Shown here: piece after piece, positions 16,940 through 32,000 of the stretch
Numbering within the stretch: position 1 is the first letter of the stretch
Layout: each line of letters starts with the position of its first letter
Assembly (NCBI RefSeq): GCF_041929135.1
Contig: NZ_JBHFNS010000031.1
Coordinates: forward strand, 1 to 32,000
DNA length: 32,000 nt
Direction: 5' to 3'
DNA from: Floridaenema fluviatile BLCC-F154
Lineage (GTDB): Bacteria > Cyanobacteriota > Cyanobacteriia > Cyanobacteriales > Aerosakkonemataceae
Notes under the pieces: generated by a model
What the model was told of the DNA's origin: nothing
What the model saw: only the letters and a program-made list of their open reading frames with translations
Database searches by the model: none
Program-made: the position numbers and the translations under genes

Positions 16940-17704
16940 CTAATCGGATTTTGATTGATTAAAAAAAGGTAAGCATTGTAAGAATTCCTTAACTTCTTTT
17001 TGTTCAGATTTGGGAAACTCGGAAGGAGTATCTATTAACAACATTTTTCCTGATTCCATTAAGCCAATTCTCGAAGCTAATAAAAAAGCTTCTTGAATGT
17101 CGTGAGTGACAAAAACCACAGTTTTACCTAATTGTTTTTGTAGCTGAAGAAACTCTTTTTGAATTTCAATTCTAGTAATGGGATCGAGTGCGCCGAAAGG
17201 TTCATCCATTAATAATAATGGCGGGTCAGCGGCGAGGGCACGGGCAACCCCAACTCGCTGACGTTGACCACCGGATAATTCGTTAGGGTATCTGTCGGCA
17301 AATTGTTTGGGGTTGAGTCCGACTAGTTGTAAAAGTCGATCTACTCTTTGGGAAATGCGATCGCGTTTCCACCCCTCCAAACTAGGAACTAATCCCACAT
17401 TTTGAGCAATAGTAAAATGAGGAAATAAACCAGTTTCTTGAATTACATAACCAATAGATCGCCGCAATTTAATCGGGTTCCATTCATTAGTAGAAATTCC
17501 TTCTACCCGTACTTCTCCACTACTAGGAGTCAGCAACCGATTAATTAATTTCATAGTTGTAGTTTTCCCACAACCGCTGCGTCCCAGTAATATCAAAATT
17601 TCGCCCCGTTCCACTGTGAAATTGAGATTAGATACTAAAGGTCGATCGTTAAGTAAGTAACTAACGTTGTGAAATTCAACAGCAATTTCGTTATCTTGTA
17701 CCAT
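16940..17704 (-). CDS. ABC transporter ATP-binding protein (OpuCA/OsmV-like core, no CBS tail)
   Basis: Walker A GRSGCGKTT, signature LSGGQRQRV and Walker B LLLMDEP are present. The 254-aa length leaves no room for CBS domains. Confidence 0.85.
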   Translation of the reverse strand: MVQDNEIAVEFHNVSYLLNDRPLVSNLNFTVERGEILILLGRSGCGKTTTMKLINRLLTPSSGEVRVEGISTNEWNPIKLRRSIGYVIQETGLFPHFTIAQNVGLVPSLEGWKRDRISQRVDRLLQLVGLNPKQFADRYPNELSGGQRQRVGVARALAADPPLLLMDEPFGALDPITRIEIQKEFLQLQKQLGKTVVFVTHDIQEAFLLASRIGLMESGKMLLIDTPSEFPKSEQKEVKEFLQCLPFFNQSKSD

Positions 17705-17825
17705 GAGAGATGCTCAATTTAAGGAATAATTTTAGTATATTTGAAATGTCCCGCAGAAGGAACTTTCTTTAAGACGTGAGGATATGTGAAAATTTAAGGT
17801 TGCCACTCAAGGTGAGATTGTTTTG

Positions 17826-17948
17826 CTAATAAATCTGCACGCCTGTTTCCCAATCTACCCATTGTTTACGAAGTAATGCCCGATAAACAATGGCATTATC
17901 TGGTAATGGTTCAAACTCCGATCCCCCATCATAAAATTGTTCGGTCAT
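17826..17948 (-). other. 40-aa ORF immediately after the 134-aa ORF (possible truncated gene)
   Basis: Own translation gives MTEQFYDGGSEFEPLPDNAIVYRALLRKQWVDWETGVQIY*. Its ATG lies 2 nt after the upstream stop (TAAGCATG). It is not in the ORF track. Confidence 0.25.
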
Positions 17949-17950
17949 GC

Positions 17951-18355
17951 TTAGTTAAACCACTGTAGCCAATGAATTAATCTTGCAGAAGACACTTCAT
18001 AATCTACAGCATAATCATCACCTTTTTGATGATAAATATGAGCTTTTTTATCAGAATTTGCGGGACAGAATAAGTGAATAGCACAATCTTTATCTCGGTT
18101 TGACCAATCGAGAGTAATTCCGCCGAATTCATCTGTAGAAACCCAAGCTTTAGGGAAACTATTACCCATAATTTCGTATGTCTCTAAAACTAAGTTCATA
18201 ACTGTCTTAAAAGCGTAGTCTGTTGGCTGCAAAACACCATAATCATCTTCTGCTTCTAAATCTAAAAGTTCCAAAATTCTTTTCACAGTAATAGTAAAGT
18301 TTGAAAAATCACTGTGACTACTGCTATCAGAAAGTATATCCTTGGATAAAGCCAT
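17951..18355 (-). CDS. hypothetical protein (134 aa)
   Basis: Clean ORF divergent from the helicase gene. No recognised motif. Confidence 0.5.
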   Translation of the reverse strand: MALSKDILSDSSSHSDFSNFTITVKRILELLDLEAEDDYGVLQPTDYAFKTVMNLVLETYEIMGNSFPKAWVSTDEFGGITLDWSNRDKDCAIHLFCPANSDKKAHIYHQKGDDYAVDYEVSSARLIHWLQWFN

Positions 18356-18462
18356 AGAAATACCTGAACTATTACAAATAACAGGGTAACACAGACAAAA
18401 CTAGTTACAAATTGCCACTATACACTTAAAATTAACGAGGGGAATCACAGTTTTAGATAATA

Positions 18463-20094
18463 ATGCCTCGTACTCCTACTTTAACTTTCGATCGCGGCAC
18501 CTTAATCCTACATCCACCACCAAGAGGCAAAAGCTGGGTGGAATTTGCTACTTGGGATGACAGAGTAGAAAAATTTCGCATTCCGGCTATTCATTACCGT
18601 CCTTTGGTAGAAGCTTTGCAAGCAGAAGGAATTAACTTTATTGATGAGGCAAAAGAATTTATACCTTTGCAATTAGTTCCGAGTTTAGAAATGGAACCTT
18701 ACCCTCATCAAAGTGAAGCTTTGGAGGCGTGGAAATTAGCAGGAAGAATGGGAGTTGTTGTGCTTCCAACTGCTGCGGGAAAAACTTATTTGGCGCAATT
18801 AGCAATGCAAGCTACGCCTCGGAGCACGTTAATTTTAGTGCCAACTTTGGATTTAATGCACCAATGGTATGCACATTTAGTGGCGGCTTTTCCTGATGCG
18901 GAAGTTGGTTTGTTGGGAGGTGGATCGAGGGATAAAAGTCAAATTCTTGTTGCTACTTATGATAGTGCGGCTATTAATGCGGAAAGTTTAGGAAATCGCT
19001 ATGCTTTGTTAATTTTTGATGAATGCCATCATTTACCTACGGAGTTTTATCGGGTGATTGCGGAATTTGCGATCGCACCCTACCGTTTAGGACTTTCCGC
19101 AACTCCCGAAAGAACCGATGGCAAACATAAGGAATTAGATACTTTAATTGGCACAGAAATTTACCGGAAAACACCCGAAGAATTAGCGGGGAAAGCTTTA
19201 GCCGATCATCAAATTATTCCGATTAAAGTTAAGTTATCTCAACAAGAAAGGGAAAGATATAATGAATTAATGAAAGTTCGCAATGACTTTTTGAAAGCCG
19301 AAAAAATTCAATTGGGAAGTCTGGAAGGTTGGCAAAGATTTGTGATGGTGAGTGCGCGATCGCCAGCCGGAAGACGTGCTATGCTAGCCCATAGAGAAGC
19401 CAGGGAAATTGCTGTGGGAACTGACGGGAAAATTCGCGTTTTAGCTGATTTATTAGCTGAACATTTTCCCGAAAGAACGTTGATATTTACGACAGATAAC
19501 GCCACAGTTTATCGCATTTCTCAAGAGTTTTTAATCCCAGCAATTACTTATCAAACTCCTGTGAAGGAAAGACACGAAATTTTAACTCGGTTTAAGCAGG
19601 GAGAATATAAAAGTTTAGTTGCTTCTCACGTTTTAAATGAGGGGGTTGATGTGCCAGCTGCTAGTATTGCAATTATCCTTTCTGGTACTGCTTCGCCAAG
19701 GGAATATATTCAAAGATTGGGGCGAATTTTGCGTAAGGGTGGTGATAATAATAAGCGGGCAATTTTGTATGAGGTGGTGACGGAAGATACGAGTGAGGAA
19801 AGGGTTTCGCAGCGGAGAAAGGGAGAGGAATTTGAACCGCATAGACGCGAAGGACGCAAAGAAAGAGAAGAAGAGAGTAAGTTTGTTCAGTTGGAACTTT
19901 TGCCTTCTGAACCTGTTTATAAGGTTGCTGAGTCGGCGGAGGTTGGGGTTGATGATTCGGTTAAGAATCAGGGAAAATCAGAGATAAGTTATTCTAAGGA
20001 AAGTCGAAAGTCTAAGAAGAAAAATGTTACCAAGCGAGTTGCTGATTCATCGCCAAAGTGGGGAGTCGATAATCCCGAAACGTCTGAAGATTGA
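18463..20094 (+). CDS. XPB/Rad25-like SF2 DNA helicase
   Basis: Motif I PTAAGKT, motif II FDECHH, motif III LSATPERTDG (the RED-motif position reads RTD) and motif VI QRLGRILR are present. The N-terminal LTFDRGTLIL resembles the XPB damage-recognition domain. The tail beyond about residue 445 is highly charged and low-complexity. Confidence 0.85.
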   Translation: MPRTPTLTFDRGTLILHPPPRGKSWVEFATWDDRVEKFRIPAIHYRPLVEALQAEGINFIDEAKEFIPLQLVPSLEMEPYPHQSEALEAWKLAGRMGVVVLPTAAGKTYLAQLAMQATPRSTLILVPTLDLMHQWYAHLVAAFPDAEVGLLGGGSRDKSQILVATYDSAAINAESLGNRYALLIFDECHHLPTEFYRVIAEFAIAPYRLGLSATPERTDGKHKELDTLIGTEIYRKTPEELAGKALADHQIIPIKVKLSQQERERYNELMKVRNDFLKAEKIQLGSLEGWQRFVMVSARSPAGRRAMLAHREAREIAVGTDGKIRVLADLLAEHFPERTLIFTTDNATVYRISQEFLIPAITYQTPVKERHEILTRFKQGEYKSLVASHVLNEGVDVPAASIAIILSGTASPREYIQRLGRILRKGGDNNKRAILYEVVTEDTSEERVSQRRKGEEFEPHRREGRKEREEESKFVQLELLPSEPVYKVAESAEVGVDDSVKNQGKSEISYSKESRKSKKKNVTKRVADSSPKWGVDNPETSED

Positions 20095-21238
20095 TGACAG
20101 GAATTTGGAGATTGCGACGGATTTAATTAGTTGTTTTGAGGAGAATGTCGGGAAAACTCAAGGAAATTTGGATAAGCAGCTTTTGGAGTTGGAAGGTGAT
20201 AGTCCAGATTATCGTTTAAAGCGGGGTTTTGCTCATTTGTTGAAGAGTAGTTTCGCTACTTTTGAAATTGTTAGTCCTCTGGAACCGCAGGAATTACGTC
20301 AGCGAGTTTTTACTTTATCTGCACAATCAATTCCTAATCCTTTGGCATCTCAAAGGGTGTTGAATAATTTAGCCGATCGACTAACTCAGGAGTTAAATAA
20401 AGAGGTTACTTCTCAACAAATTCGCACTGGTTTATATGCAGATTTACAGGAAAATCGCATTTTGACTCAGTTCGATCCTCCTGCACCAGAAGATATTATC
20501 CATCGTTATAATATTTCGCAAGTTCAAGGAGTTTTTTATCGTGCTAGTCAGATTATAATTAATGCTCATCGTAATGTTCCGGGTGAGTATAAATTGCTGT
20601 TTCGCTATCTGAAATTGTTTCAATTAATGGCTTATATTGAAGGGGATGCCGATCACGGTTTTACTATTACTATTGATGGGCCAACTAGTTTATTTAAAGC
20701 TAGCACGAGATATGGATTGGCGATCGCTAAATTAATCCCCGCACTTTTGCACGTCACTAAATGGAGTCTCAGCGCCACTTTACAAACAAAAGATATCTAC
20801 AGCGGAAAGCAAAAAACTGGCAGATTTACCCTCAATTCTGATTGCGGTTTAGTCACTCATTATCCCCCCGGAAAACCTTACGATAGTATGTTAGAAGCTG
20901 GATTTGCTAATCGTTGGGATTCCCTAAAAACTGATTGGGTTTTAGAACGAGAAGTTGACTTAATTCCGATTCCCGGAAGTGTCATGATTCCCGATTTTCG
21001 CTTAGTTCATCCCGATGGTAGAACTTATTTATTAGAAATAGTTGGTTACTGGCGACCTGAATATTTACAAAAGAAATTTGCTCAAGCAAGAAAAGCAGAA
21101 TGTGACAATTTAATTTTGGCAGTTTCGGAAAGATTGAATTTAGAAAAAGCTGGGGTTAAAGTCAGTAACACTCCTGCCAAAATTGTCTGGTTTAAAGATA
21201 AACTTTCCCCCAAAGCAGTGTTAGAAGTTCTAGAATAA
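20024..21238 (+). CDS. DUF790 / Bax1-like nuclease (XPB partner)
   Basis: The N-terminus MLPSELLIHRQSGESIIPKRL, the ~400-aa size and the position directly after an XPB-like helicase match the archaeal/bacterial XPB-Bax1 pairing. It overlaps the helicase ORF by 71 bp. Confidence 0.7.
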   Translation: MLPSELLIHRQSGESIIPKRLKIDDRNLEIATDLISCFEENVGKTQGNLDKQLLELEGDSPDYRLKRGFAHLLKSSFATFEIVSPLEPQELRQRVFTLSAQSIPNPLASQRVLNNLADRLTQELNKEVTSQQIRTGLYADLQENRILTQFDPPAPEDIIHRYNISQVQGVFYRASQIIINAHRNVPGEYKLLFRYLKLFQLMAYIEGDADHGFTITIDGPTSLFKASTRYGLAIAKLIPALLHVTKWSLSATLQTKDIYSGKQKTGRFTLNSDCGLVTHYPPGKPYDSMLEAGFANRWDSLKTDWVLEREVDLIPIPGSVMIPDFRLVHPDGRTYLLEIVGYWRPEYLQKKFAQARKAECDNLILAVSERLNLEKAGVKVSNTPAKIVWFKDKLSPKAVLEVLE

Positions 21239-21268
21239 ATTGCATAAAGCAAATATTTGGAGGTGGCA

Positions 21269-21826
21269 ATGTCTGTGCAATTATTGAGACGCAAATTTAC
21301 AGTAACGCAGTATCATAAAATGATTGAAGCTGGTATTTTGAAAGAAGATGAACGAATAGAATTGATTAGAGGAGAAATTATCGAAATAAACCCAGTTAGT
21401 AGCAGACACGCTGCTTGTGTTTCTCGTCTTACCCAATTGTTTTTGTTCCGTTTGTCACAATCAGTAATTGTTAGCTGTCAAAATCCAGTAGAATTAGATG
21501 ATTCTGAACTTCTACCAGATATATCATTATTGCGTCGAAAAGCTGATTTTTATGAATCAGGACATCCACAACCACAGGATATCTTGTTATTAGTGGAAGT
21601 GGCAGATACGACGGTGGAAAGCGACAGAGAAATCAAAATCCCTCTCTATGCCGAAAACGGTATTATTGAAGTTTGGTTGATAGATATTAACGAACAATCT
21701 ATTGAAGTTTATCGACAACCTTCACCAAAAGGTTATCAGAATATACAAAAATTTATGCGGGGAGAAAATTTATCTATTCTCGCTTTTTCGGAAATTATTA
21801 TCAGTGTAGATGAAGTGTTGGGATAA
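21269..21826 (+). CDS. Uma2 family (DUF820) PD-(D/E)xK-type endonuclease
   Basis: FTVTQYHKMIEAGILKEDERIELIRGEIIEINPVSSRHA and EVADTTVESDREIKIPLYAENGIIEVWLID are typical Uma2 blocks. I prefer ATG 21269 over the TTG at 21257. Confidence 0.8.
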   Translation: MSVQLLRRKFTVTQYHKMIEAGILKEDERIELIRGEIIEINPVSSRHAACVSRLTQLFLFRLSQSVIVSCQNPVELDDSELLPDISLLRRKADFYESGHPQPQDILLLVEVADTTVESDREIKIPLYAENGIIEVWLIDINEQSIEVYRQPSPKGYQNIQKFMRGENLSILAFSEIIISVDEVLG

Positions 21827-21877
21827 AGTAAATAATGTAGAGACGTTGTATACAACGTCTCTACATTATTTACTTTA
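21824..21877. terminator. 54-bp perfect palindrome (27-bp arms, no loop)
   Basis: taaagtaaataatgtagagacgttgta | tacaacgtctctacattatttacttta. The left arm begins with the Uma2 stop codon TAA. Confidence 0.7.
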
Positions 21878-22149
21878 TTGTGTTCCGAATCAGAGATTAC
21901 AAACCTATTGAAGCCGCAGGGCGACAGGTGGCAGGGTAGAATATAAAAAAAATTTATTCCGTTTCAAAATAAACTAATTTAAGTAGTAACACCGATGCGA
22001 AAAGAAATAAAAAAATCAAATAATAATAAAGTGCAGATAGTAATAAATAACCTTTTTTATTGCTGTTTGTCGGTGGAACTGCCAAACCGATAGAAGAATT
22101 TATTTATAAATATCTGCTAAAAATTATCACTAATACCAAATAGCCAAAT

Positions 22150-22476
22150 ATGGGAAATTTAACTTCAACTTTTGAGGAGTTAATCACAGAAATTGCTGCA
22201 ATTAATCAAGCTTGGAAAGTATCAAAGGAACTTTCTCCTAATTTGGGTAATTCCCTAAAAGACTTAAAAAATCGCTTGCAGGTGCGGCTACTCCGCAAAT
22301 ATGCACCAGAGCGAGTTTATTTGGAATTAGACACAGCAACCGAAAGTGAAGAACCACTTTACAGTTTGCGACTTCGGCAACCTATAGGAAATTGCTGGAA
22401 TGTTGAACATTTGCCTGTGCGGGTAGCTCAAGAAATGCTATCGGATGAAGAGTTAAAGCAGTTGATAAAAGTGTAA
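22150..22476 (+). CDS. hypothetical protein (108 aa), first gene of the Zorya-like operon
   Basis: The ORF ends 20 bp before the SD/GTG start of the ZorA-like gene. No recognised domain. Confidence 0.5.
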   Translation: MGNLTSTFEELITEIAAINQAWKVSKELSPNLGNSLKDLKNRLQVRLLRKYAPERVYLELDTATESEEPLYSLRLRQPIGNCWNVEHLPVRVAQEMLSDEELKQLIKV

Positions 22477-22496
22477 CCAAATAAAGGAGAAAATCA

Positions 22497-24809
22497 GTGA
22501 ACGAATTGTGGAAAGTAGTAAACCTAGTAGTGAACCAATTGTGGAGAGTAGTAAAAACAGTCATTTATGATTTTAATTACTTTTTTGGATTAAATTGGCA
22601 GAACATTATCTTTTATTTGTTAATAGTTGGGTTGTTCGTGTTTGCTGTTAGGAAAGAATGGCGTGCTACCAAGCGGTATCAAAGAAATCAAAAGTCAAAA
22701 ATTAGTATAATAGATGACGCGCTTAAATATTTATCTAAAAACTTAACAAGGGTAAAAGGAATTGGAAGAGAAACAGTCAACTTAGATTTTGAGAACATTC
22801 CTAAACATATCCGCAAAGAAATATTTAACTGGGTAAGCGAACATCTAGCTGGAATTGAAAGAAACGGTACTTTTCAAGCGCAATTACAGTCCGGGCGCTT
22901 TGTGCTTGTACAGTATCCAACAATTCTGGAAAAGCCAGTTCCTCGTAGTTCTTTGCGCTTCATTCAAAGCATATTAATTGCACTTGGAGTTTTGGGAACT
23001 TTTTTCGGAATTCAAGTAGGACTTCGCAGCATTTCTTTAAGCGATATTGGGCAAAATAGTGGTCATTTACTTAAGTCAAGTGTCCAACTACTTGAAGGAA
23101 TGAAAACAGCTTTTTCTACTTCATTAGTTGGATTAGGATTGTCCAGTATTTTTACATTGTTTTTAGCTTTTTGTGAACGGGAAAGACAACAGGATCGCGA
23201 TCGCCTAAAAAGCCAACTAGACTCAATTACCATATTAGAAACACCGATGCGACTGTTTGAAAGAATGAATCCTGAAGCCAATTTGAAAGCTTCTCAAGCA
23301 CTTGCAAATGCAGCGGAAACAATGGGAACGAAATTTGCGGAACTGATAGAAATTCAGCGCCAATTAAGTCCGAAAGCGATCGGACAAGAAGTAGGAAACG
23401 TCATCAAACCTGTGTTGCAAGAAATTCAAGTCGAACTAACAGCATTGAGAGAAATCAAGGCAGATCAAGGTCAAGAAATATTGAAAAATTTAATCGAAGA
23501 ACAGAGAGAACAGTTAATTAAACCAATTATTACCGAACTAAGTAATAGTGCCAAGCTGACAAAACAAGCTTCCGAAGCTGTAATGGATCTAAAAAATGAA
23601 TTAGGCAGTGTTTCTCGTAGTTTATCAGAATCTATTATTACCATTGAGCGATTTCAATCCGAAACTTTGGAGAAACTGCAACAATTTGCTACTAACTTAG
23701 AAGCAATTTTAGGCGAGTTCCGAAATGATACTAAAAACGTCATGCAACAAGTAGCAACCGAAGTTAAAACTGTTGTTAATGAAAGTATTTTAGCGATGCA
23801 AAATCAGCGAACTGCTTTTGAATCTAGCGCCGAAAAAGCAGCTGCTACTTTCGCAGGAATTCGGGAAGAATTGGAAAAATCTCTCAACACTCAGGCGGAA
23901 ATTCAACAGCAGTCGATGCAACAATTTCAAAACTACATTCATGAAATTTTTGCCGAACAAAATAACAACCTGCAACAATTAGGCGAACAAAGCTCTGAAG
24001 CAATGCGCGTGCAACGTGATGCGCTGACTAAAATTGCCAAACAAACAATTAGTACATTCATCGGTATTCGTGAAGAACTAGAACAATCTCTGCAAACTCA
24101 AGCGCAAATAGAACGGGAGTTAATTCAAGAATTTCAAAACCGTTCTTTGGAAATTTTCGATCGTCAAGCTAACAATTTAAGTCAAGTTGGCAACGCCGCT
24201 TCTCAGCAAATGAATGAAGCTAAGGAAAACCTAAATTCTACTCTCAGCAATATCGATTCTGTGTTGCAAAATACCCGCTTAACAGTGCAGGGAGAGTTAG
24301 AGAATTTCCGCATAAACTATCAAGCTGCTTTGCAAGAATTCTTCAGCCAGCAAAATCAATTGTTAGAAGGAACATTAGGCGAACAACGCCAAGGATTAGC
24401 CAATGTAGTGGAAAACTTTAAGGGAGTTTTTGAAGAAGAATATCATCGACGCACAGCTTTTTTCCAAGAAATTCAAGAAACTACTAAAGTTGTCAGCAAT
24501 TTAGCTAACACAATTGGATTGAGTTCAAGTGAGAGACTAGTACAACTTAAAGAGTTAGCTGAAACTATAGGTGATGAAGCGTCTCGCGTAGATAAAGCTT
24601 ATCAGAATTTAACCGACAAGTTTAACCAAGCTTTAGGAAGTTGGAATAAAGAACTAGTCGATTATTTCCAGCGAAAATCTGAATTTGAAATGAATTTTTT
24701 CACCAAAGCAGATGCAGCGACGGAAAAAGTATGCCACCAATTATTACAAGCCGCTAACTATTTAGTAGCTGCTGAAAACACTCGCAAAGTTAACAATGAA
24801 GAACATTAA
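22497..24809 (+). CDS. ZorA-like protein: MotA/ExbB-type membrane module plus a ~540-aa coiled-coil tail
   Basis: The GTG start is preceded by AAGGAG. Three hydrophobic helices are present: IIFYLLIVGLFVFAV, FIQSILIALGVLGTFFGIQVGL and TAFSTSLVGLGLSSIFTLFLAF. The last two resemble the GLLGTVxG and TTxxGL helices of MotA/ExbB/TolQ. The rest is Q/E/L-rich heptad-like sequence with an internal 69-aa duplication. Confidence 0.7.
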   Translation: MNELWKVVNLVVNQLWRVVKTVIYDFNYFFGLNWQNIIFYLLIVGLFVFAVRKEWRATKRYQRNQKSKISIIDDALKYLSKNLTRVKGIGRETVNLDFENIPKHIRKEIFNWVSEHLAGIERNGTFQAQLQSGRFVLVQYPTILEKPVPRSSLRFIQSILIALGVLGTFFGIQVGLRSISLSDIGQNSGHLLKSSVQLLEGMKTAFSTSLVGLGLSSIFTLFLAFCERERQQDRDRLKSQLDSITILETPMRLFERMNPEANLKASQALANAAETMGTKFAELIEIQRQLSPKAIGQEVGNVIKPVLQEIQVELTALREIKADQGQEILKNLIEEQREQLIKPIITELSNSAKLTKQASEAVMDLKNELGSVSRSLSESIITIERFQSETLEKLQQFATNLEAILGEFRNDTKNVMQQVATEVKTVVNESILAMQNQRTAFESSAEKAAATFAGIREELEKSLNTQAEIQQQSMQQFQNYIHEIFAEQNNNLQQLGEQSSEAMRVQRDALTKIAKQTISTFIGIREELEQSLQTQAQIERELIQEFQNRSLEIFDRQANNLSQVGNAASQQMNEAKENLNSTLSNIDSVLQNTRLTVQGELENFRINYQAALQEFFSQQNQLLEGTLGEQRQGLANVVENFKGVFEEEYHRRTAFFQEIQETTKVVSNLANTIGLSSSERLVQLKELAETIGDEASRVDKAYQNLTDKFNQALGSWNKELVDYFQRKSEFEMNFFTKADAATEKVCHQLLQAANYLVAAENTRKVNNEEH

Positions 24810-24811
24810 TT

Positions 24812-25477
24812 ATGTTTAATTTCACTGACTTACAACAACAAGATCTAGAGGAAGAAGAATCGAGCGTTTTCCTATCAATTGGCGATTTAATGTCAGGTTT
24901 ACTGATGATTTTTGCCCTGCTATTCGTGACAGTTCTTGTTCAGCTAAAAGATCGAGAAGAACCACGTCGGGTTGTAATTGGTACTGTAGTTGAACAGATG
25001 AAAGGTAATAACATTAATGTGGAAGTTAACCCGGAAACTGGCGATGTCAGCATTCAGGATAAGATTCTTTTTGATGAGAATAGTGCTGAATTAAAGCCCG
25101 CAGGTAAGTTATTTCTGCAAGAATTTATTCCGGTTTACAGTCGCGTCATTTTTTCTAAAAAAGACTTTGAAAAAGAGATTGCGAGAGTGGTTATTGAAGG
25201 GCATACTAGCTCGAAAGGAGATTATAATAGCAATTTGCAATTGAGCTTATTACGATCGCTCTCTGTAGCTAAATTCATCTTCTCCAATGAACTAGATTTT
25301 TCCACAAAATCAGAATTGAGAACAAAAATTATGGCAGCAGGGCGAGGGGAAATGGAAGCTAAACAAGAACAAGATGATCCTAGCGATCGCAAAGTAATCT
25401 TCCGCTTCCAATTTCGCGGTGAAAACTTCTCAGAATGGTATCAAAAAACTGAATCTTTCCAAAAACAAAAACCATGA
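24812..25477 (+). CDS. ZorB-like protein: MotB-type TM helix plus an OmpA-like peptidoglycan-binding domain
   Basis: It starts 2 nt after the ZorA-like stop. The TM segment FLSIGDLMSGLLMIFALLF carries the conserved Asp. The OmpA-like region has ILFDENSAELKPAG, VVIEGHTSSKGDYNSNLQLSLLRSLSV and DRKVIFRF. Confidence 0.8.
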   Translation: MFNFTDLQQQDLEEEESSVFLSIGDLMSGLLMIFALLFVTVLVQLKDREEPRRVVIGTVVEQMKGNNINVEVNPETGDVSIQDKILFDENSAELKPAGKLFLQEFIPVYSRVIFSKKDFEKEIARVVIEGHTSSKGDYNSNLQLSLLRSLSVAKFIFSNELDFSTKSELRTKIMAAGRGEMEAKQEQDDPSDRKVIFRFQFRGENFSEWYQKTESFQKQKP

Positions 25478-25532
25478 GACTTCATTATAATTATGTTTTA
25501 ATTAACCCTACGAAAATACATTATTTAAAACT

Positions 25533-25910
25533 ATGGAGAACGAAGGAGGACAAGTTAGCCGTAATCAAGTTGATGAAATTAAGGCGATCGCCGAACAATA
25601 CGACATAGGAACTTGCTTGCAATGTGCTGCGGCAATTAAATCATACTTGAAATCTCAGCAAATTAAAGGCAGACATATCAGAGTCGAGACTCTTTCTCCA
25701 AACGGATTACAAGGAATTATTTACGATGATGACACAAACCAGCAGATTGCCACCAATGGATTCCATGAAGGAATTGCGATCGACATCGAAGGAGTGGAAA
25801 AAGTTTTTGATAACCTGTACCATGAAGGAAAGCCGATAAACGAATGGTTACAAGATTTAGTCGTTATCTCTGGCAATCAGCTTAATCTCATAAACAAAGA
25901 ACAATTTTAG
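25533..25910 (+). CDS. small papain-fold toxin-like protein (Tox-PL-2-like), 125 aa
   Basis: The pattern GTCLQCAAAIKSYLKSQQIKGRHIRV ... ATNGFHEGIAI ... VFDNLYHEG ... EWL matches my memory of 'papain fold toxin 2' domains, with Cys at a helix N-terminus, then His, then Asp/Asn. Unverified. Confidence 0.5.
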   Translation: MENEGGQVSRNQVDEIKAIAEQYDIGTCLQCAAAIKSYLKSQQIKGRHIRVETLSPNGLQGIIYDDDTNQQIATNGFHEGIAIDIEGVEKVFDNLYHEGKPINEWLQDLVVISGNQLNLINKEQF

Positions 25911-25936
25911 GAAAAAATTCCAGAAAAAGAGGTAAT

Positions 25937-26293
25937 ATGATTAGTTTTTCGGAACTTTTACCCAACATCAAAAAAAGACCGACACTTTATTTAAGTCGGT
26001 ACTCAATTTTTGATTTTCAATCCTTCTATTATGGGTACGATCTCGCTAGGAATCAAATCGGATTGCCTAAACCAGAACAAGATCGAGAATTTGAAGATTT
26101 TTTGTTATGGTTACGAGAAAGATATAAAATAGAAACTACTCAATCTTGGGCAAGTCTCATCCTGTTTCATTCTGTAGATGAAAGAGATGCTCTAAATCGG
26201 TTGTTTGACTTATGGGAAAAATTTCAGAATCGCGAACAAGCTAACGATCGCCCAAGTCAACACAACGAGGTCAAAAACGAAAAGTCCCGTTAA
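25937..26293 (+). CDS. putative cognate immunity protein (118 aa)
   Basis: Small acidic/aromatic ORF 26 bp downstream of the toxin-like ORF. The call rests on position only. Confidence 0.35.
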   Translation: MISFSELLPNIKKRPTLYLSRYSIFDFQSFYYGYDLARNQIGLPKPEQDREFEDFLLWLRERYKIETTQSWASLILFHSVDERDALNRLFDLWEKFQNREQANDRPSQHNEVKNEKSR

Positions 26294-26359
26294 GTGCTTC
26301 GCGCAGGGAAAAGAAAAGAGGGAAAAGGGCAAAAGGGTAAAAGTATAAAGAGGCTCTAA
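26290..26359. repeat. 70-bp direct repeat, left copy (identical to 28925-28994)
   Basis: ttaagtgcttcgcgcagggaaaagaaaagagggaaaagggcaaaagggtaaaagtataaagaggctctaa is identical at both sites. Weaker similarity (aaaaacgaaaa) extends about 15 bp further left at both sites. Confidence 0.9.
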
Positions 26360-26378
26360 ATCCGCGCAGCAGCACAGA

Positions 26379-26514
26379 CAAAGCAGATGCAGCAACGGAA
26401 AAAGTTTGCCAGCAATTATTATTATAATAGCAATTTGCAATTGAGCTTATTAAGTTCCAATTTCGCGGCGAAAACTTCTCAGAATGGTATCAAAAAACAG
26501 CGCCAAAACCATGA
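26379..26514 (+). pseudogene. collapsed 'ghost' copy of the zorA 3' end and zorB
   Basis: 26379-26421 matches 24704-24746 (40/43). 26421-26452 equals 25221-25252 (32/32). 26455-26498 matches 25406-25449 (43/44). The ghost keeps the zorB reading frame to a TGA (26512-26514) that overlaps the next ATG. Confidence 0.8.
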
Positions 26515-28007
26515 AATTTCAGTTTAAAACCTTACATTTACCAGAATTATTTGAGTACCAGCCGACTAAATTGGCTCAACTTGTTACTCAATTAAATGAG
26601 TCAAGTAATTATTCAGAGTTACATAAGTTGGCGGAGATTTTGCCGATCGCACCCCGCACTATTGGCGAAATTATCAGCGACATTCAAAACAATCAAACTG
26701 ATAGGATTAGCTTGTTAGAATGGGCTTACTGCCTTTATAATAAAGCCGAATGGGATGAACAAAATCCACAGCAAAGTCAAGAAACTTCTCAGAAAATTTG
26801 GCAAGAAGCAACCCACAGTTCTTGGTTAAAACAGATATTATTTTGGCTATTGGCGCTTAATTATGGCGATCGCAATTCTCGGAAAATTGCGCCATCTTTA
26901 GCAGATTGCTTTCCTAAATTTAAGCCTCAATTTGTGATTAGCTATCCCCTAGCCGTACAAATCCTAACTGCACTCAGTAATCAATCTTTTGACAAATTAG
27001 CTCAAATTTGTTGGCAACATTTACTCACACCAGAACAATTATTAAATCGCGCTCAATTACCCCCTAACTTTAGTGGAAATAACACAGCTTTAGACGAAAT
27101 GGTTAAACTCTTTCCGATTGAAACTCCTCATGTTGAGCAACAAAATTTACTCATAAAATGTTTTGAAGAAATGTCAATTGAACAGCAGGTAAAAGCAATA
27201 GAAAATCTGTTAATGAATGTTTCAATTGAAGTCGGTAGCACTCTCTCCAAATTAGTCGAATGGCTGCGGCAAAATTATGGCCCACGCACTGCTAGTTCCC
27301 GGTGGCAGCAACTTTCAGAACAAGCAAAATTAGCTCTCCGCCAATGGATTAAAGCTGCTAGTTATCGGGATTTTGACATATTAGTAGATGTGCTATTGCA
27401 ACAGTTAAATACTCAACCTCGTGAGCACAATCAACTGAAACGGCGCAGAGATTTTTGGTCTAATTATAGCGATCGTTTTGAGCGAATTCGCATCCTCTTG
27501 CCTGAAGAATCAGCTAACATACTTGGTTCTCATTTACAGCGGGATGTAGATATTTTAGTTCCTGACGGCAGCGATGCCACCGAAGTTTGTATTTTTGATT
27601 TTGGCGATTGGTTTGTCGTTGAATTTTTTCGAGGTATTGGCAGCGAAATTCGCCTGTTCGATCGCCATAAACACCCCCAAATTGAACAAATACTTTTTGC
27701 ATCTCCCACCCTATCAATCAAGCAAATTCGCAGATTAGACGGCAACATCCACGATCACGTTTATCTTTGGCAAAATCACTGCGAAAAATGGTTAAGAGAT
27801 TTCGGTATTCGCCCCAACTCTAAAACTAAAACATTCAAAGGTTTATCCGGCAACTGCGCTAAATATGATGAAAATAATGGACTTCCTACACCTTCAAAAG
27901 AAGATTTACAAAACCGAGAAGATCATTTAAGAAAATGGCGGTGGCAAATAAATAAACTAGAAAGCGAAGCAAAACCCGAACCAAAAAAATTCCATTCCCC
28001 CCCTTAA
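26511..28007 (+). CDS. ZorC-like protein (probable EH-signature domain)
   Basis: I prefer the start at ATG 26511 (MKFQFKTLHL), which forms an ATGA overlap with the ghost zorB stop. The ORF-track start at 26484 lies inside ghost sequence. The C-terminal region RRRDFWSNYSDRFERIRILLP...EVCIFDFGDWFVVEFFRGIGSEIRLFD...HDHVYLWQNHCEKWL resembles the EH-signature domain of ZorC, from memory. The size fits ZorC. Confidence 0.55.
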   Translation: MKFQFKTLHLPELFEYQPTKLAQLVTQLNESSNYSELHKLAEILPIAPRTIGEIISDIQNNQTDRISLLEWAYCLYNKAEWDEQNPQQSQETSQKIWQEATHSSWLKQILFWLLALNYGDRNSRKIAPSLADCFPKFKPQFVISYPLAVQILTALSNQSFDKLAQICWQHLLTPEQLLNRAQLPPNFSGNNTALDEMVKLFPIETPHVEQQNLLIKCFEEMSIEQQVKAIENLLMNVSIEVGSTLSKLVEWLRQNYGPRTASSRWQQLSEQAKLALRQWIKAASYRDFDILVDVLLQQLNTQPREHNQLKRRRDFWSNYSDRFERIRILLPEESANILGSHLQRDVDILVPDGSDATEVCIFDFGDWFVVEFFRGIGSEIRLFDRHKHPQIEQILFASPTLSIKQIRRLDGNIHDHVYLWQNHCEKWLRDFGIRPNSKTKTFKGLSGNCAKYDENNGLPTPSKEDLQNREDHLRKWRWQINKLESEAKPEPKKFHSPP

Positions 28008-28312
28008 TAAGGGGGGCTAGGGGGGATCAAATGCCACGATAAAATCAGCAAAACCCGAATCAAAAAAATTCCATTCCCCCCCTTATTAAGGGGGGCTAGG
28101 GGGGATCAAATGCCACGATAAAATCAGCAAAACCTCAACCAAAAAAATTCCTGTCCCCCCCTTATTAAGGGGGGCTAGGGGGGATTAAATACCACGATAA
28201 AATCAGCAAAACCTCAACCAAAAAAATTCCTGTCCCCCCCTTATTAAGGGGGGTTAGGGGGGATCAAATGCCATCATCAAATCACCAAAACCTCAACAAC
28301 ACCGAATTTCAC
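27966..28312. repeat. tandem array, ~4.4 copies of a 79-bp unit, each containing the palindrome cccccccttattaagggggg
   Basis: C-runs start at 27997, 28076, 28155 and 28234 (period 79). Each unit reproduces the region upstream of, and the first codons of, the DUF559 gene (atgccacgataa versus atgccatcatca). Confidence 0.85.
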
Positions 28313-28675
28313 CTACCCTACAACCGTCAACTAGTAGAAAGAGCAAAAGAACTTCGCCAAAACCCAACACCCGCAGAAAAAAAGCTTTGGCAAAACTACC
28401 TCAGAACCTTTAAATTTCGAGTTTTACGTCAACGACCAATTGATAATTTCATAGTTGATTTTTACTGCGCTGCATTGAAATTAGTAATTGAAGTTGATGG
28501 AGAAAGTCATTTTACTGATCAAGGTCAGGAATATGACCGAGAAAGAACACAAATATTAGAAGGATATGGGTTGAAAGTTGTGAGATTTACTAATGAACAA
28601 GTGTTGAATAATTTTGAGGCGGTGTGTGGGGAAATTGAGGGTTTGATCCCCCCTAGCCCCCCTTAATAAGGGGGG
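28234..28675 (+). mobile_element. DUF559 ORF bracketed by 31-bp terminal inverted repeats (candidate selfish mini-element)
   Basis: Left end: cccccccttattaaggggggttaggggggatc (28234-28265). Right end: gatcccccctagccccccttaataagggggg (28645-28675). The right end is the reverse complement of the left apart from one c/t difference and one extra C. Confidence 0.4.
28268..28666 (+). CDS. DUF559 (Vsr/PD-(D/E)xK-like) endonuclease domain protein
   Basis: PTPAEKKLWQNYLR..FKFRVLRQRPIDNFIVDFYCAALKLVIEVDGESH...YDRERTQILEGYGLKVVRFTNEQV is the canonical DUF559 pattern. Confidence 0.85.
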   Translation: MPSSNHQNLNNTEFHLPYNRQLVERAKELRQNPTPAEKKLWQNYLRTFKFRVLRQRPIDNFIVDFYCAALKLVIEVDGESHFTDQGQEYDRERTQILEGYGLKVVRFTNEQVLNNFEAVCGEIEGLIPPSPP

Positions 28676-28876
28676 AACTGGATTCAAATTTTCTGATTTT
28701 TGCTAGAGATTAGATCCCCCCTAACCCCCCTTAATAAGGGGGGAACCGGATTCAAATTTTCTGATTTTTGCTAGAGATTAGATCCCCCCTAACCCCCCTT
28801 AATAAGGGGGGAATCGGATTCAAGATTCAAATCAGCTTCAAAGTCCCCCTTATTAAGGGGGATTTAGGGGGATCGT
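28645..28876. repeat. tandem array, 3 copies of a 68-bp unit (gatcccccctaaccccccttaataagggggg...), plus one inverted 5-mer-tract variant
   Basis: Unit starts are at 28645, 28713 and 28781. The variant cccccttattaagggggatttagggggatc lies at about 28845-28874. The first unit encodes the DUF559 C-terminus (LIPPSPP*). Confidence 0.85.
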
Positions 28877-28924
28877 CAACTTGTGCCTAAAAGGTTTTAT
28901 ATTCAGAAAAAACGAAAAAATTTT

Positions 28925-28994
28925 TTAAGTGCTTCGCGCAGGGAAAAGAAAAGAGGGAAAAGGGCAAAAGGGTAAAAGTATAAAGAGGCTCTAA
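28925..28994. repeat. 70-bp direct repeat, right copy (identical to 26290-26359)
   Basis: See the left copy. Its last bases overlap the stop codon of the FGE-family gene. Confidence 0.9.
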
Positions 28995-29857
28995 GTCCAC
29001 TCCGCACTACATACAATACGAAAACCAATACCGTCGTTACCGTCGTCCGCATTGTAGTCGTAGCGACAGGCGGAACGGCAGTGCTCAGGATTGTTGCCCC
29101 ACGAACCACCGCGCAGCAGCCTTATTAAGCTTTCATCACTAGATAACCATATACTCGCATCGTTAGGTGCGCCTTCATAATTATCATGCCAATGATCAGC
29201 ACACCATTCCCAAACATTGCCGTGCATATCGTAAAGCCCGAAAGCATTCGCGGGAAAACTGCGAACTTCTGTAGTTTGCTGTCGATAAATTCCCTTAGAG
29301 CCAGAAGCGTAGACATAGTTGCCATTGTAATTGGCTAAATCGGTTGTAATCGTTTCGCCAAAATGAAAAGGTGTTGTAGTTCCCGCACGACAGGCATATT
29401 CCCACTCCGCCTCACTCGGCAATCGATAATTTTGCCCGGTTTTCTGGGATAGCCGTTCGCAAAACTCCACCGCCTCATACCAGGAAACTTGCTCTACCGG
29501 ACGATTTGCACCTTTGAAAGAAGATGGCTCAGGATTGAGGCCAATTTTAACAATGGGAAAACCTGCGACTGTTTCCCATTGAGCTTGCGTAACCTGAAAC
29601 TTACCCATGAAAAAGGGTTTTATAGTCACTGAATGCTTTGGCTTTTCATAATCTAACGATTCTCGTTCATCAGTTGGCGAACCCATCAGGAATGTGCCAC
29701 TAGAAATCGCAACCATTTCCAGAATTACCCCATTCCCCAAGTCTTCAGTAAAAAATTCTGCTTGTTTACGACTGCGTTTGATTTCGTAAGTAACTTCTTC
29801 ACCTTTTTTGACAACAGAAATAGTTGCCGTCTCAAAATCAAAGGTCTGTTTTTGCAT
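28991..29857 (-). CDS. formylglycine-generating enzyme (SUMF1/FGE-sulfatase) family protein
   Basis: RLPSEAEWEYACRAGT, GLYDMHGNVWEWCADHW and RLLRGGSW are present. Confidence 0.85.
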   Translation of the reverse strand: MQKQTFDFETATISVVKKGEEVTYEIKRSRKQAEFFTEDLGNGVILEMVAISSGTFLMGSPTDERESLDYEKPKHSVTIKPFFMGKFQVTQAQWETVAGFPIVKIGLNPEPSSFKGANRPVEQVSWYEAVEFCERLSQKTGQNYRLPSEAEWEYACRAGTTTPFHFGETITTDLANYNGNYVYASGSKGIYRQQTTEVRSFPANAFGLYDMHGNVWEWCADHWHDNYEGAPNDASIWLSSDESLIRLLRGGSWGNNPEHCRSACRYDYNADDGNDGIGFRIVCSAEWT

Positions 29858-29944
29858 ATTAAATGTGTTTGATATTTCACTTTATCAGAGTAGCTATGCT
29901 TAATAATATCAAACTTACCGATTAACAACCCACTCCTAATAAAT

Positions 29945-31018
29945 TTACAAAAATCTTCCTAACACCGCCGCCGTAGCTTCTCCCGTTTTCTTCCAACTAA
30001 ATAACTTGCATCTCTCAAAACCAGCTTCCCGCAAACGCATCCGCAAACTTTCATCATTCGCCAAACTTTGCATTGCTTCAGTAATTTCTCCCACATTATA
30101 AGGATTAACTAAAATCGCCGCATCCCCCGCTGCTTCTGGTAAAGAGGAAAGATTGGAAGTAATTACCGGAGTTCCACAAGCCATTGCTTCTAATACCGGA
30201 AGTCCAAAACCTTCCCAAAGACTTGGAAAAACTAAAGCAATTGCTTGATTAATTATTGTCGGTAATTCACTATAAGGAACATATTCTAAAAACTTGACTT
30301 GATTACTGATTCCTAACTGACTTACTGCTGCTTTCAATGTTGGTGTAAAGCGTTCATCAACAGAACCAGCTATCCACAATTCATAGTCATTTTTATTAGG
30401 TAAGTTAGCAAAAGCTGTAATTAATCTGTTAATATTTTTATAAGGATCATGTCTACCAATATATAAAAAGTAATTACGCTTTGGCAAATCTAAAAAACTA
30501 AAGTGTGTTTCATTATATGCTAATAAAATAGGTGTTAGTTTCCGTTCTGGGATTTGGAAAAATTTCATTACATCGTTAGCAGTGGAAACCGAATCACAAA
30601 TAATATGTTGTGCTTGTTTTAATACCAAAGGTAAAAGATAACGACTGTAATTAGTTAAGGGCGAAAATCGTCTGGGAAATCGCAAGGGAATTAAGTCATG
30701 AACTGTCAAAACATATCGACAATCAGCATAAATTGGTGCTTCTGGTAAAGGCGAAAATAACAGTTTAGCTTGCAGTTTTTGATAAATTTTCGGCAGTTGC
30801 AATTGCGTCCATAAAACGCGGGAAAAGTTACCTTTGGTTCCTTGTTCCGGTGTTAAGTTCGACGGTACTGGGTAACAGTTAAAATCTGGGATATTTCGGC
30901 TAGATAACAAAGTTGGATTAAAGGGTTTTAAATGGGGGAAAAGATTAAAGGCGTAGGTACTAATCCCCGTTGGTTTCGCCATTAAAAATGCTAAGTTTAT
31001 TAGTAGTTCGTTTGACAA
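29945..31018 (-). CDS. glycosyltransferase family 4
   Basis: [36 protein letters not shown]. Confidence 0.85.
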
Positions 31019-31019
31019 G

Positions 31020-31865
31020 TTAAAATACTCTCCTTAAATAAAGCGATATTCCCGCAAATTTTCCCCAGGCGATTTTTGGGTTGAATGGAAGTAAGTATAT
31101 CGCATTTAAAAGCAAACGAATCAATCTGAATAATAGGACAGTTTTACTTGCATATCTTTCCATAGTCAGCAAATAGCTGTAAGTACTATGTTTAAATTTT
31201 AAAAAGGCATTTTTACTAGTTATCGCTGACGGTTGATGAACTACACTAATCTGATTAGTAATGGCAATTAAATGTCCTTGTTTAGCGTAGCGTTGGCAAA
31301 AGTCAAAGTCTTCGTAATAGAGAAAGTATTCTGGATCAAATTGCGGACAAACCAGAAATTTTTGGAGATTGATTAGTAAACTACAACCGCTAACCCAATC
31401 GGTTTTTAAATACGCAAAATTGGAATTTTCTAAATCAATTGTTTTAGGAATAATTGCGCCATTTTGGGGGATAAATTCACCGCCAGCAAACCAAATTTCG
31501 CCAGTTGTGCTGTAAATAATTGTCCCCAAAATAGAAAGTTGGGGATGGTTTTGAAAAAGCGTTGTCACTTTTTCTAGTGCTTCGGGTAACAAGTAAGCAT
31601 CGGGATTAATTAACCAAACTATTGCTTGAGGATTTTGCTGGTAAATCCAATTTAATCCTAAGTTACAAGCTTTGCCGAAACCGAGATTTTCCCGTGATTC
31701 CAGAATCACGATTTTGTCGGTTTTTAAAAGCTGAATAGGTTGATCTTCGGGGGAATTGTTGACAATAATAATTTGATATTCGTTAGATTGATTGATAGAA
31801 ATTGAGCTAATTAATTTGGTAATTAACTGGCTGGAATAATAGTTAACTGTTAGGAAGTAAATCAC
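31020..31865 (-). CDS. glycosyltransferase family 2 (rhamnosyltransferase-like)
   Basis: The N-terminal region has IIIVNNSPED and ENLGFGKACN, followed by YYEDFDFC (DxD-like). The start is GTG. The stop lies 1 nt from the next gene's start. Confidence 0.8.
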   Translation of the reverse strand: MIYFLTVNYYSSQLITKLISSISINQSNEYQIIIVNNSPEDQPIQLLKTDKIVILESRENLGFGKACNLGLNWIYQQNPQAIVWLINPDAYLLPEALEKVTTLFQNHPQLSILGTIIYSTTGEIWFAGGEFIPQNGAIIPKTIDLENSNFAYLKTDWVSGCSLLINLQKFLVCPQFDPEYFLYYEDFDFCQRYAKQGHLIAITNQISVVHQPSAITSKNAFLKFKHSTYSYLLTMERYASKTVLLFRLIRLLLNAIYLLPFNPKIAWGKFAGISLYLRRVF

Positions 31866-32000
31866 GTTAACTCAATTTGACTATCATCACCAATCATAAA
31901 TCTTAAGGCTTTTGGGCGTTGGGGTGCAACGATTAATTGGGCACGTTGTCCTATTACGCTATCTACTATTCGCTGATGAATTCCTACTACTTTGGCACTT
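31862..32000 (-). CDS. 3' end of an upstream gene (partial; runs off the window)
   Basis: Own translation of the minus strand gives SAKVVGIHQRIVDSVIGQRAQLIVAPQRPKALRFMIGDDSQIELT*. It is open to the window edge. Its TGA overlaps the GT2 GTG start as GTGA. The product is not identifiable from 45 aa. Confidence 0.4.
   Translation of the reverse strand, partial: SAKVVGIHQRIVDSVIGQRAQLIVAPQRPKALRFMIGDDSQIELT

Follow-up and report, generated by a model that had tools for sequence, protein, structure and literature searches.

What a Zorya system without ZorD consists of, and whether it represents a type of its own, is the question raised by an operon at positions 22150-28007 of a 32,000-nucleotide (nt) stretch of DNA from the cyanobacterium Floridaenema fluviatile BLCC-F154 (contig NZ_JBHFNS010000031.1, positions 1 to 32,000 of the forward strand), which is referred to here, at its full length, as the window. 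An initial annotation of this DNA had described a Zorya-like operon with a non-canonical gene set and had proposed that it was either an undescribed subtype or a type I system that lost ZorD during local rearrangements. The present analysis identifies ZorA, ZorB, and ZorC in the operon, and the evidence favors the first alternative: at its core, the locus consists of a module of four genes, in which a gene for a small protein is followed by zorA, zorB, and zorC. The six open reading frames (ORFs) of the initial annotation, all on the + strand, were found where it had placed them, as were the motifs that it quoted (GVLGTFFGI, TSLVGLGLSS, and IGDLMSGLL). They are the small protein gene, which is the first gene of the module (22150-22476, 108 amino acids (aa)), zorA (22497-24809, 770 aa, GTG start), zorB (24812-25477, 221 aa, starting 2 nt past zorA), a Tox-PL-2 toxin gene (25533-25910, 125 aa), the partner gene of the toxin (25937-26293, 118 aa), and zorC, which in its longest form extends from 26484 to 28007 and encodes 507 aa. 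The ZorC-like character attributed to the last of these is borne out, but its length is not, as the true start of zorC is most likely at 26511 (MKFQF...), matching the start in all homologues and giving a gene on the + strand at 26511-28007 that encodes 498 aa; the 9 codons from 26484 are a leftover fragment of zorB.

The 770-residue protein is matched by the PADLOC model ZorA1 (PDLC00597) with a score of 785 bits (E=1e-236) and by 15 further ZorA models, and it aligns with the solved type I ZorA from Shewanella (8vvn_C) across the channel helices (E=1e-6), but its score against Pfam MotA_ExbB, 18.3 bits, is under the gathering score of 22.9 bits. The earlier description of this protein as MotA/ExbB-like therefore stands on the PADLOC and 8vvn_C matches, the match to the Pfam family being sub-threshold. 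The three hydrophobic helices and the tail of about 540 residues that had been recognized earlier were located at residues 33-51, 158-176, and 208-226 and in a helical tail of 544 aa. This tail contains an internal tandem repeat of ~66 aa (23826-24233, ZorA residues ~444-579), and across the clade ZorA varies from 533 to 839 aa with a highly variable tail length, which suggests that the tail evolves in length through the gain and loss of repeats. ZorB, likewise as described before, is a MotB-like protein with a transmembrane (TM) aspartate and an OmpA domain: it matches PADLOC ZorB1 (PDLC00609; 250 bits, E=7e-75) and Pfam OmpA (E=1e-10, 41.9 bits versus a cutoff of 27.2) and aligns with E. coli ZorB (8qyd_F, E=9e-10) with its TM residue Asp25 opposite the functional Asp26.

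ZorC is matched by PADLOC ZorC1 (PDLC00618; 624 bits, E=5e-188) and by the Pfam family EH_Signature (PF15611; 101.7 bits versus a cutoff of 27.5, E=8e-29). Its residues E371 and H414 are nearly invariant and are separated by 43 residues, a spacing identical to that of E400 and H443 in E. coli ZorC (EcZorC; PMC11946911), and its AlphaFold2 (AF2) model has a predicted local distance difference test score (pLDDT) of 87. The best PADLOC models from outside the clade score 68 bits (ZorA1), 89 bits (ZorB2), and 24 bits (ZorC1); for the ZorB of the window, the ZorB2 model, at 89 bits, is slightly above the non-clade ZorB1 models. By these scores, the clade is very distant from the characterized Zorya systems. 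The ratio of nonsynonymous to synonymous substitution rates (dN/dS) is 0.10-0.32 for ZorA, ZorB, and ZorC, including the zorC gene that lies beyond the insertion discussed below, and the three genes are thus under purifying selection. Two tandem zorB paralogues are present between zorA and zorC in four related loci (L016, 8362-9827; L029, 8439-10004; L031, 8401-9857; L066, 1-1523) from Oscillatoria/Laspinema-type and unclassified cyanobacteria; the N-terminal segments with the TM helix and Asp are near-identical within these pairs, the periplasmic domains have diverged, and overall identity is ~55-59%, so that these loci may encode heteromeric ZorB stators.

The conservation of the module was examined by scanning one genome per species with an alignment of ZorC, which gave 154 confirmed matches among 185,579 species, from which the best 80 loci were kept. 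In all, 81 related loci, almost all of them cyanobacterial, were compared by calling their ORFs and searching these with the window proteins. A search for ZorC homologues yielded >300 proteins whose named sources are all cyanobacterial. The first three neighborhoods, from Phormidium sp. R1S1, Kamptonema, and Stanieria (ZorC identities of 91%, 62%, and 46%, respectively), contain the small ORF, ZorA, ZorB, and ZorC and are without ZorD. All four genes are present in 60 of the 68 non-redundant loci that have at least 3.6 kb of sequence upstream of zorC and are evaluable in this respect, a result that accords with the earlier suggestion that the 108-aa ORF is co-operonic with zorA. Among the remaining 8, the small gene is frameshifted in L013, the contig begins inside zorA in L027, 5 loci are degraded, and L018 is the sole locus that clearly has no small gene. 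A small protein of ~110 aa is thus always, or nearly always, encoded directly upstream of zorA. The median intergenic gaps along the module are 25, 0, and 13 nt, and its genes, all on one strand and often overlapping, form a tight operon throughout the cyanobacterial loci and in at least one plasmid of Nostoc. The plasmid copy, found by a tblastn search of plasmids with ZorB, is on plasmid2 of Nostoc sp. HK-01 (AP018320.1; L093, 6540-18194), a mobilizable plasmid of 312 kb in which the four genes directly precede those for an SNF2 helicase resembling DpdE/DrmD and for a large DNA-modification enzyme; in a second Nostoc strain (L064, 6800-14704), the helicase is 99% identical to that of HK-01 plasmid2. 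Searches of plasmids for a canonical zorABCD locus returned type II or other ZorAB-like loci. The operon is interrupted at a junction other than that affected in the window in an Oscillatoria metagenome-assembled genome (MAG; L027, 2314-5613), where a 3.3-kb insertion with a 691-aa minus-strand ORF parts zorA from zorB.

The absence of ZorD extends well beyond the window. A Pfam scan of every window ORF with 80 aa or more and a PADLOC scan of ten genes in or beside the locus gave no match to ZorD, ZorE, ZorF, or ZorG, in agreement with the initial annotation. The other window ORFs of this size are housekeeping or unrelated defense-type genes and include ABC transporters, ZnuA, a C5 methylase, RecO, a major facilitator superfamily (MFS) protein, glycosyltransferases, an XPB-like helicase, DUF790, Uma2, DUF559, and FGE-sulfatase proteins. 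ZorD is absent from all 66 of the related loci that have at least 4 kb downstream of zorC, which include relatives with only 40-46% ZorC identity and the plasmid copy, and ZorE, ZorF, and ZorG are also never adjacent to the module in the clade. The lack of ZorD is therefore a property of the whole clade and is not specific to the window. Clustering of the flanking ORFs over all loci disclosed no extra family common to the clade; the recurrent flank families are housekeeping genes confined to ~22 syntenic Nostocaceae loci, and the large same-strand ORFs that follow zorC encode Hsp70, isoleucyl-tRNA synthetase (IleRS), sacsin-like, and similar proteins. Scans of the large flanking ORFs of the related loci with Pfam and PADLOC likewise gave no ZorD. 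The SNF2 helicase that follows zorC in L064 and in HK-01 plasmid2 was considered as a ZorD and rejected, because PADLOC places it with DpdE/DrmD (695 bits) and its 25 best matches there include no ZorD model. As hidden components, the XPB/DUF790 pair and DUF559 were set aside because they are common only to the window and its closest relative, and Uma2 because no other locus has an equivalent of it next to the module.

The small protein is mildly acidic (isoelectric point 5.5), and in its AF2 model (pLDDT 84, predicted template-modeling score 0.76) a helical hairpin is combined with a sheet of three strands and a pair of short helices. Searches of Pfam, PADLOC, NCBIfam, and PHROGs and a sequence-profile search of the PDB gave no match, and a Foldseek search with the model gave nothing significant (best E=0.19 in the PDB and 0.24 in BFVD). 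The protein is 52-90% identical across loci in which ZorC is 46-91% identical, and its dN/dS is 0.24-0.27 in comparisons with L005 and Kamptonema, whereas the value of 0.61 against Phormidium locus L001 comes from just 16 substitutions. When 1.84 billion representative proteins were searched exhaustively with a profile, the family was found to comprise 146 clusters at E<=1e-3, nearly all of ~105-130 aa, and the genomic context of five distant members (profile E of 2e-8 to 1e-3) was inspected. P0264 (L084) has genes for ZorA, ZorB, and ZorC after the small gene, and the layout in a second P0264 contig (L085) is the same. The next gene was compared with PADLOC in L084, L086, L088, and L090, and in all four it matched the ZorA model that is matched in the window, PDLC00597; in L086, L088, and L090, this is its best match. 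The L088 member (171-989) is a 272-aa protein in which an N-terminal zinc ribbon is fused to the small-protein domain, and it is encoded directly upstream of ZorA. L090 (124-4324) encodes a small protein of 126 aa, a short-tailed ZorA of 509 aa, a ZorB of 317 aa, and a non-ZorC protein of 431 aa (hhalign probability 0.1% with ZorC) in which no Pfam or PADLOC family was detected; it may represent a further swap of effector, and this locus gives a hint that it is ZorAB, and not ZorC, with which the small protein is associated.

The Zorya literature examined recognizes types I-III only. Like type I Zorya (E. coli NCTC 9026 and Shewanella ANA-3; PMC11946911, PMC11890865), the clade has a ZorA with MotA-like TM helices and a long tail, a ZorB with a TM Asp and an OmpA domain, a ZorC with the EH signature and an E-H spacing of 43 residues, and the gene order A-B-C with tight or overlapping junctions. 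However, type I has ZorD, an SNF2-type helicase/nuclease, after zorC, whereas the clade loci do not; the clade also differs from type I in its extra conserved gene upstream of zorA, which encodes ~110 aa, and in the great divergence of its ZorA, ZorB, and ZorC. It shares the ZorAB core with type II (ZorABE) but has no ZorE HNH endonuclease, and the downstream DUF559 gene is not HNH. Type III, in which ZorF and ZorG accompany ZorAB (PMC8565338), resembles the clade in having an accessory gene upstream of zorA and no recognizable nuclease or helicase effector, but the small protein has no match to ZorF (DUF3348) or ZorG (DUF2894) in Pfam or PADLOC and the clade retains ZorC. The locus thus falls outside type I by its lack of ZorD and outside types II and III by its lack of their signature genes. 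The large surveys of Zorya were filtered for the canonical orders zorABCD, zorABE, and zorFABG, so that non-canonical clades went unseen, and the Zorya literature examined yielded no account of a ZorABC clade that lacks ZorD, of a type IV, or of a small partner gene upstream. PADLOC-DB already has clade-specific hidden Markov models labeled ZorA1, ZorB1, and ZorC1, which means that the homology of the components is known to its curators, and UniRef names some of the clade ZorC homologues Zorya ZorC EH-domain proteins. The combination, a ZorD-less Zorya variant with a small partner gene, is apparently undescribed.

In type I systems, ZorA5B2 is an ion-driven motor in which ZorB grips the peptidoglycan upon envelope perturbation, and the rotating ZorA tail recruits ZorC, which binds double-stranded DNA through its EH motif, and the ZorD nuclease (PMC11946911, PMC11890865). 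The features of the sensor half of this machine are kept in the present locus, namely the channel helices, Asp25 of ZorB, the OmpA domain, and the long tail. By analogy, ZorA and ZorB are likely to assemble in a 5:2 ratio into an ion-driven motor that uses Asp25 and is anchored to peptidoglycan by ZorB, and the long tail of ZorA would transmit a signal of the envelope perturbation that accompanies phage entry. ZorC would then probably be recruited and bind the incoming DNA through its conserved EH motif. The small protein could be a dedicated ZorAB-associated adaptor or regulator that acts at the tail or on ZorC. The step performed by ZorD in type I might be carried out by ZorC and the small protein together or by a nuclease encoded elsewhere, or there might be no such step, the DNA being sequestered instead of degraded. 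In this scheme the sensor half is drawn from homology, whereas the effector half is put forward as a hypothesis. The best overall explanation of the locus appears to be a four-gene Zorya variant without ZorD that acts by the proposed mechanism and in which the toxin cassette is a passenger, and this reading is held with reasonable, although by no means full, confidence. The stronger proposal that the module is a fourth Zorya type, which defends without ZorD, has the small protein as an obligate subunit of ZorAB, and uses as its effector either ZorC with the small protein or a signal that does not lead to DNA degradation, is a tentative one, and somewhat more may be said to speak against it than for it.

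It should be recognized that several considerations weigh against the explanation of the locus as a ZorD-less defense variant. All four genes are required by the E. coli type I system, zorD included (PMC11946911, PMC11890865), and a system without ZorD therefore has no demonstrated effector; no experiment on anti-phage activity of the clade was found in the literature examined. The scores in NCBIfam are 55 bits for ZorA against a cutoff of 100 and 55 for ZorB1 against a cutoff of 400, and ZorC has no match there. The EcZorC structure 8R68 was not recovered for ZorC by phmmer, by the family profile against PDB sequences, or by Foldseek with the AF2 model, and the link between the two proteins is one made by profile models only. 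The absence of ZorD is established at the level of the locus, from flanking DNA, rather than at that of the genome, and the role given to the small protein is purely inferential. In ~22 Nostocaceae species, the module occupies one conserved chromosomal site amid TerC, arginine decarboxylase, and other housekeeping genes, a setting that is atypical for a mobile defense island, points to prolonged vertical descent, and would be compatible with a role other than defense.

This synteny, together with the lack of a nuclease effector and the NCBIfam scores under the Zorya cutoffs, is the basis for a different explanation, in which the module is not an anti-phage system but a vertically inherited envelope machine of cyanobacteria, for example a stress sensor anchored to peptidoglycan, with an ancestry in common with Zorya. 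The module does not, however, have the setting of the housekeeping MotAB, ExbBD, or TolQR proteins, as none of the surveyed neighborhoods contains flagellar, Ton, or Tol-Pal genes. The Pfam families OmpA and EH_Signature are matched as the initial annotation had anticipated, and its view that homologues are outside motility and Tol/Ton loci was also correct, but the variable-island setting that it had envisaged does not extend to the conserved chromosomal site in Nostocaceae. Outside this family the contexts differ, and the traits of the module are defense-like: its distribution is patchy, as the numbers of the species scan indicate; the plasmid copy adjoins DISARM/Dpd-like genes; the length of the ZorA tail varies strongly; and ZorC keeps its DNA-binding EH motif. 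The loci are also often fragmented, with a broken zorA, zorB, or zorC in 13 of the 81, mostly in Nostoc MAGs. In the window, the neighbors of the operon are Uma2, XPB/DUF790, and DUF559. A non-defense envelope function is consequently considered unlikely. The fragmented genes (L015, L020, L038, L042, L044, L050, L054, L056, L070-L072, L075, and L079) are pseudogenes or assembly frameshifts.

The requirement for zorD in E. coli is also the starting point for the proposal that these are split type I systems, in which every genome would supply a ZorD-like helicase-nuclease in trans from another site. Cyanobacterial genomes are rich in helicases of superfamily 2 (SF2), and one candidate is just upstream of the operon in the window, where the gene for an XPB-like SF2 helicase (XPB_DRD, ResIII, and Helicase_C domains; PbeA-like in PADLOC) and a DUF790 gene share 71 nt (18463-21238). 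However, no helicase is consistently linked to the module: the DpdE-like enzyme is present in two loci and the XPB/DUF790 pair only in the near-identical relative, and this pair is accordingly viewed as a neighbor and not a component. The components of defense systems are, moreover, normally co-located, and, to judge from the surveyed loci, an action of ZorD in trans is regarded as improbable.

The presence of a toxin and a putative immunity gene after zorB was correctly noted in the initial annotation, but its inclusion of the pair in the gene set of the system is not supported. The toxin is matched by Pfam Tox-PL-2 (PF15643; 108 bits versus a cutoff of 25, E=3e-31), and the signature of the family, C / NxxH / DN (PMC3482391), is intact as C / N75xxH78 / D93N94, residues C31, N75, H78, D93, and N94 being invariant in 10 homologues. 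The 125-aa protein consists of the domain alone, and 40 cyanobacterial homologues are similarly stand-alone proteins of 124-126 aa; such homologues occur in many filamentous cyanobacteria. The 118-aa partner has no match in Pfam (E<=0.1), PADLOC, NCBIfam, or PHROGs and is presumed to be an immunity or antitoxin protein. An assignment of this partner to Imm73 was rejected, as there is no Pfam match and it belongs to a separate family conserved with the toxin. In three other genomes, a Tox-PL-2 gene is followed at a distance of 22-30 nt by a gene for 109-118 aa, and the two partners that can be aligned are 70-76% identical to that in the window. These free-standing cassettes adjoin NACHT nucleoside triphosphatase (NTPase) genes, PIN and BrnT toxin genes, or CobN and have no link to Zorya; DNA homology with them covers positions 25513-26235 of the window. 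The pair resembles the Tox-PL-2/Imm73 cassettes of polymorphic toxins (Zhang et al. 2012, PMC3482391) in having a full Tox-PL-2 domain and a small partner gene directly after it, but it is stand-alone, without a trafficking, RHS, or secretion region (type II secretion system (T2SS), TcdB/TcaC), and the partner, unlike those of the published cassettes, is not Imm73 and is in no described family. In functional terms, it resembles an intracellular cassette of a toxin-antitoxin-like or orphan kind.

How the cassette came to its present location can be read from a blastn comparison of window positions 16951-31996 with the Phormidium locus L001, the closest relative, which has ~92% nucleotide identity. 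Three segments are present only in the window, at 21303-21836 (Uma2), 25491-26454 (Tox-PL-2 and its partner), and 28855-29940 (FGE-sulfatase), and the absence of the second of these from L001 is supported by both blastn and an alignment of the junctions. In L001, the TGA of zorB overlaps the ATG of zorC in an ATGA junction, and the insertion in the window splits this ancestral overlap. The junction region is present twice in the window: the left copy retains the zorB stop and a dead zorC start (ATGAGACTTCATTATAA), and the right copy retains the live zorC start at 26511. Between the cassette and this start, at 26379-26510 on the + strand, is a duplicated zorA-3'/zorB remnant with the retained context of the zorC start, made up of three colinear fragments: 26379-26421 is a copy of the zorA 3' region at 24704-24746 (93%), 26421-26457 of mid-zorB at 25221-25257 (95%), and 26455-26498 of the zorB 3' end at 25406-25449 (98%). 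We infer that these fragments may be the deletion-riddled remnant of a zorA'-zorB duplication made when the cassette entered. The two-gene cassette is thus inserted exactly at the zorB/zorC overlap, in this strain only among the surveyed loci, and because the duplication of the junction leaves the zorB stop and the zorC start on opposite sides, the four Zorya genes stay intact and under purifying selection. The pair would then be a selfish toxin-antitoxin-like passenger outside the Zorya gene set.

An alternative is that the Tox-PL-2 pair has been co-opted in this strain as the Zorya effector in place of ZorD, a protease toxin being released on activation. The pair is, after all, inside the operon and on the same strand, neither of its genes is disrupted, the toxin retains its C/H/D catalytic residues, and the system is otherwise without a recognized enzymatic effector. 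Yet neither gene is found in any of the other surveyed clade loci, whose genomes carry the module without it; elsewhere the pair is an autonomous two-gene cassette beside unrelated genes, and the junction has the look of an untidy scar left by duplication, not of a fusion that has evolved. Co-option is consequently very improbable. The last proposal, that the locus is a decayed type I Zorya whose zorD disappeared recently in the course of local rearrangements, which would accord with the three insertions that set the window apart from its closest relative and with the tandem repeat array that abuts the 3' end of zorC, is rejected as scarcely credible because ZorD is missing both from the closest relative, which is not rearranged, and from each of the 66 related loci with at least 4 kb beyond zorC, down to ~40% ZorC identity, and because zorC is still under purifying selection.

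In the window, a palindrome with a perfect 20-base pair (bp) stem followed by a T-run (21827-21874, + strand) is terminator-like and lies between Uma2 and the operon, just upstream of the latter; in the comparison with L001, it is located where the Uma2 insertion ends. At the downstream end of the operon is a 79-bp tandem array of 4.2 copies (27968-28297), which covers the last 40 nt of zorC; the Phormidium relative has ~7 copies of this 79-bp unit. A related 68-bp array of 2.6 copies is present in reverse-complement orientation at 28645-28823. Each array unit contains a C-run/G-run hairpin, and the two arrays bracket a DUF559 endonuclease-like gene (28268-28666), an arrangement that may constitute a repeat-flanked mobile unit. 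Further downstream is an FGE-sulfatase-domain gene on the minus strand (28991-29857), where L001 has an RDD-domain gene at the same position. A C-5 cytosine DNA methyltransferase gene is located at 5100-6416, and no restriction-endonuclease domain is recognizable in the genes that flank it. Scans for tRNA and Rfam features in the window gave none, and the numbers of promoter-like and terminator-like sequences in it show no excess over the shuffled expectation.

In the type I model, ZorC and ZorD cooperate and ZorD degrades the phage DNA, and the clade described here calls the need for ZorD into question. A widespread ZorABC lineage that is under purifying selection, is always without ZorD, and has the small protein in addition raises the question of whether ZorC has an effector role of its own, and it also bears on what the ZorA tail recruits and on how modular the ZorAB sensor is. 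The toxin cassette provides a clean natural case of a selfish toxin/immunity pair that entered an overlapping gene junction and left both genes unbroken, and the small protein is offered as a new and testable candidate for a Zorya subunit. If the reading of the module as a fourth type is true, it would change the model in which ZorD is the executioner and would provide a minimal system in which to ask what ZorC does. For research on phage defense in cyanobacteria, the lineage is a concrete four-gene candidate.

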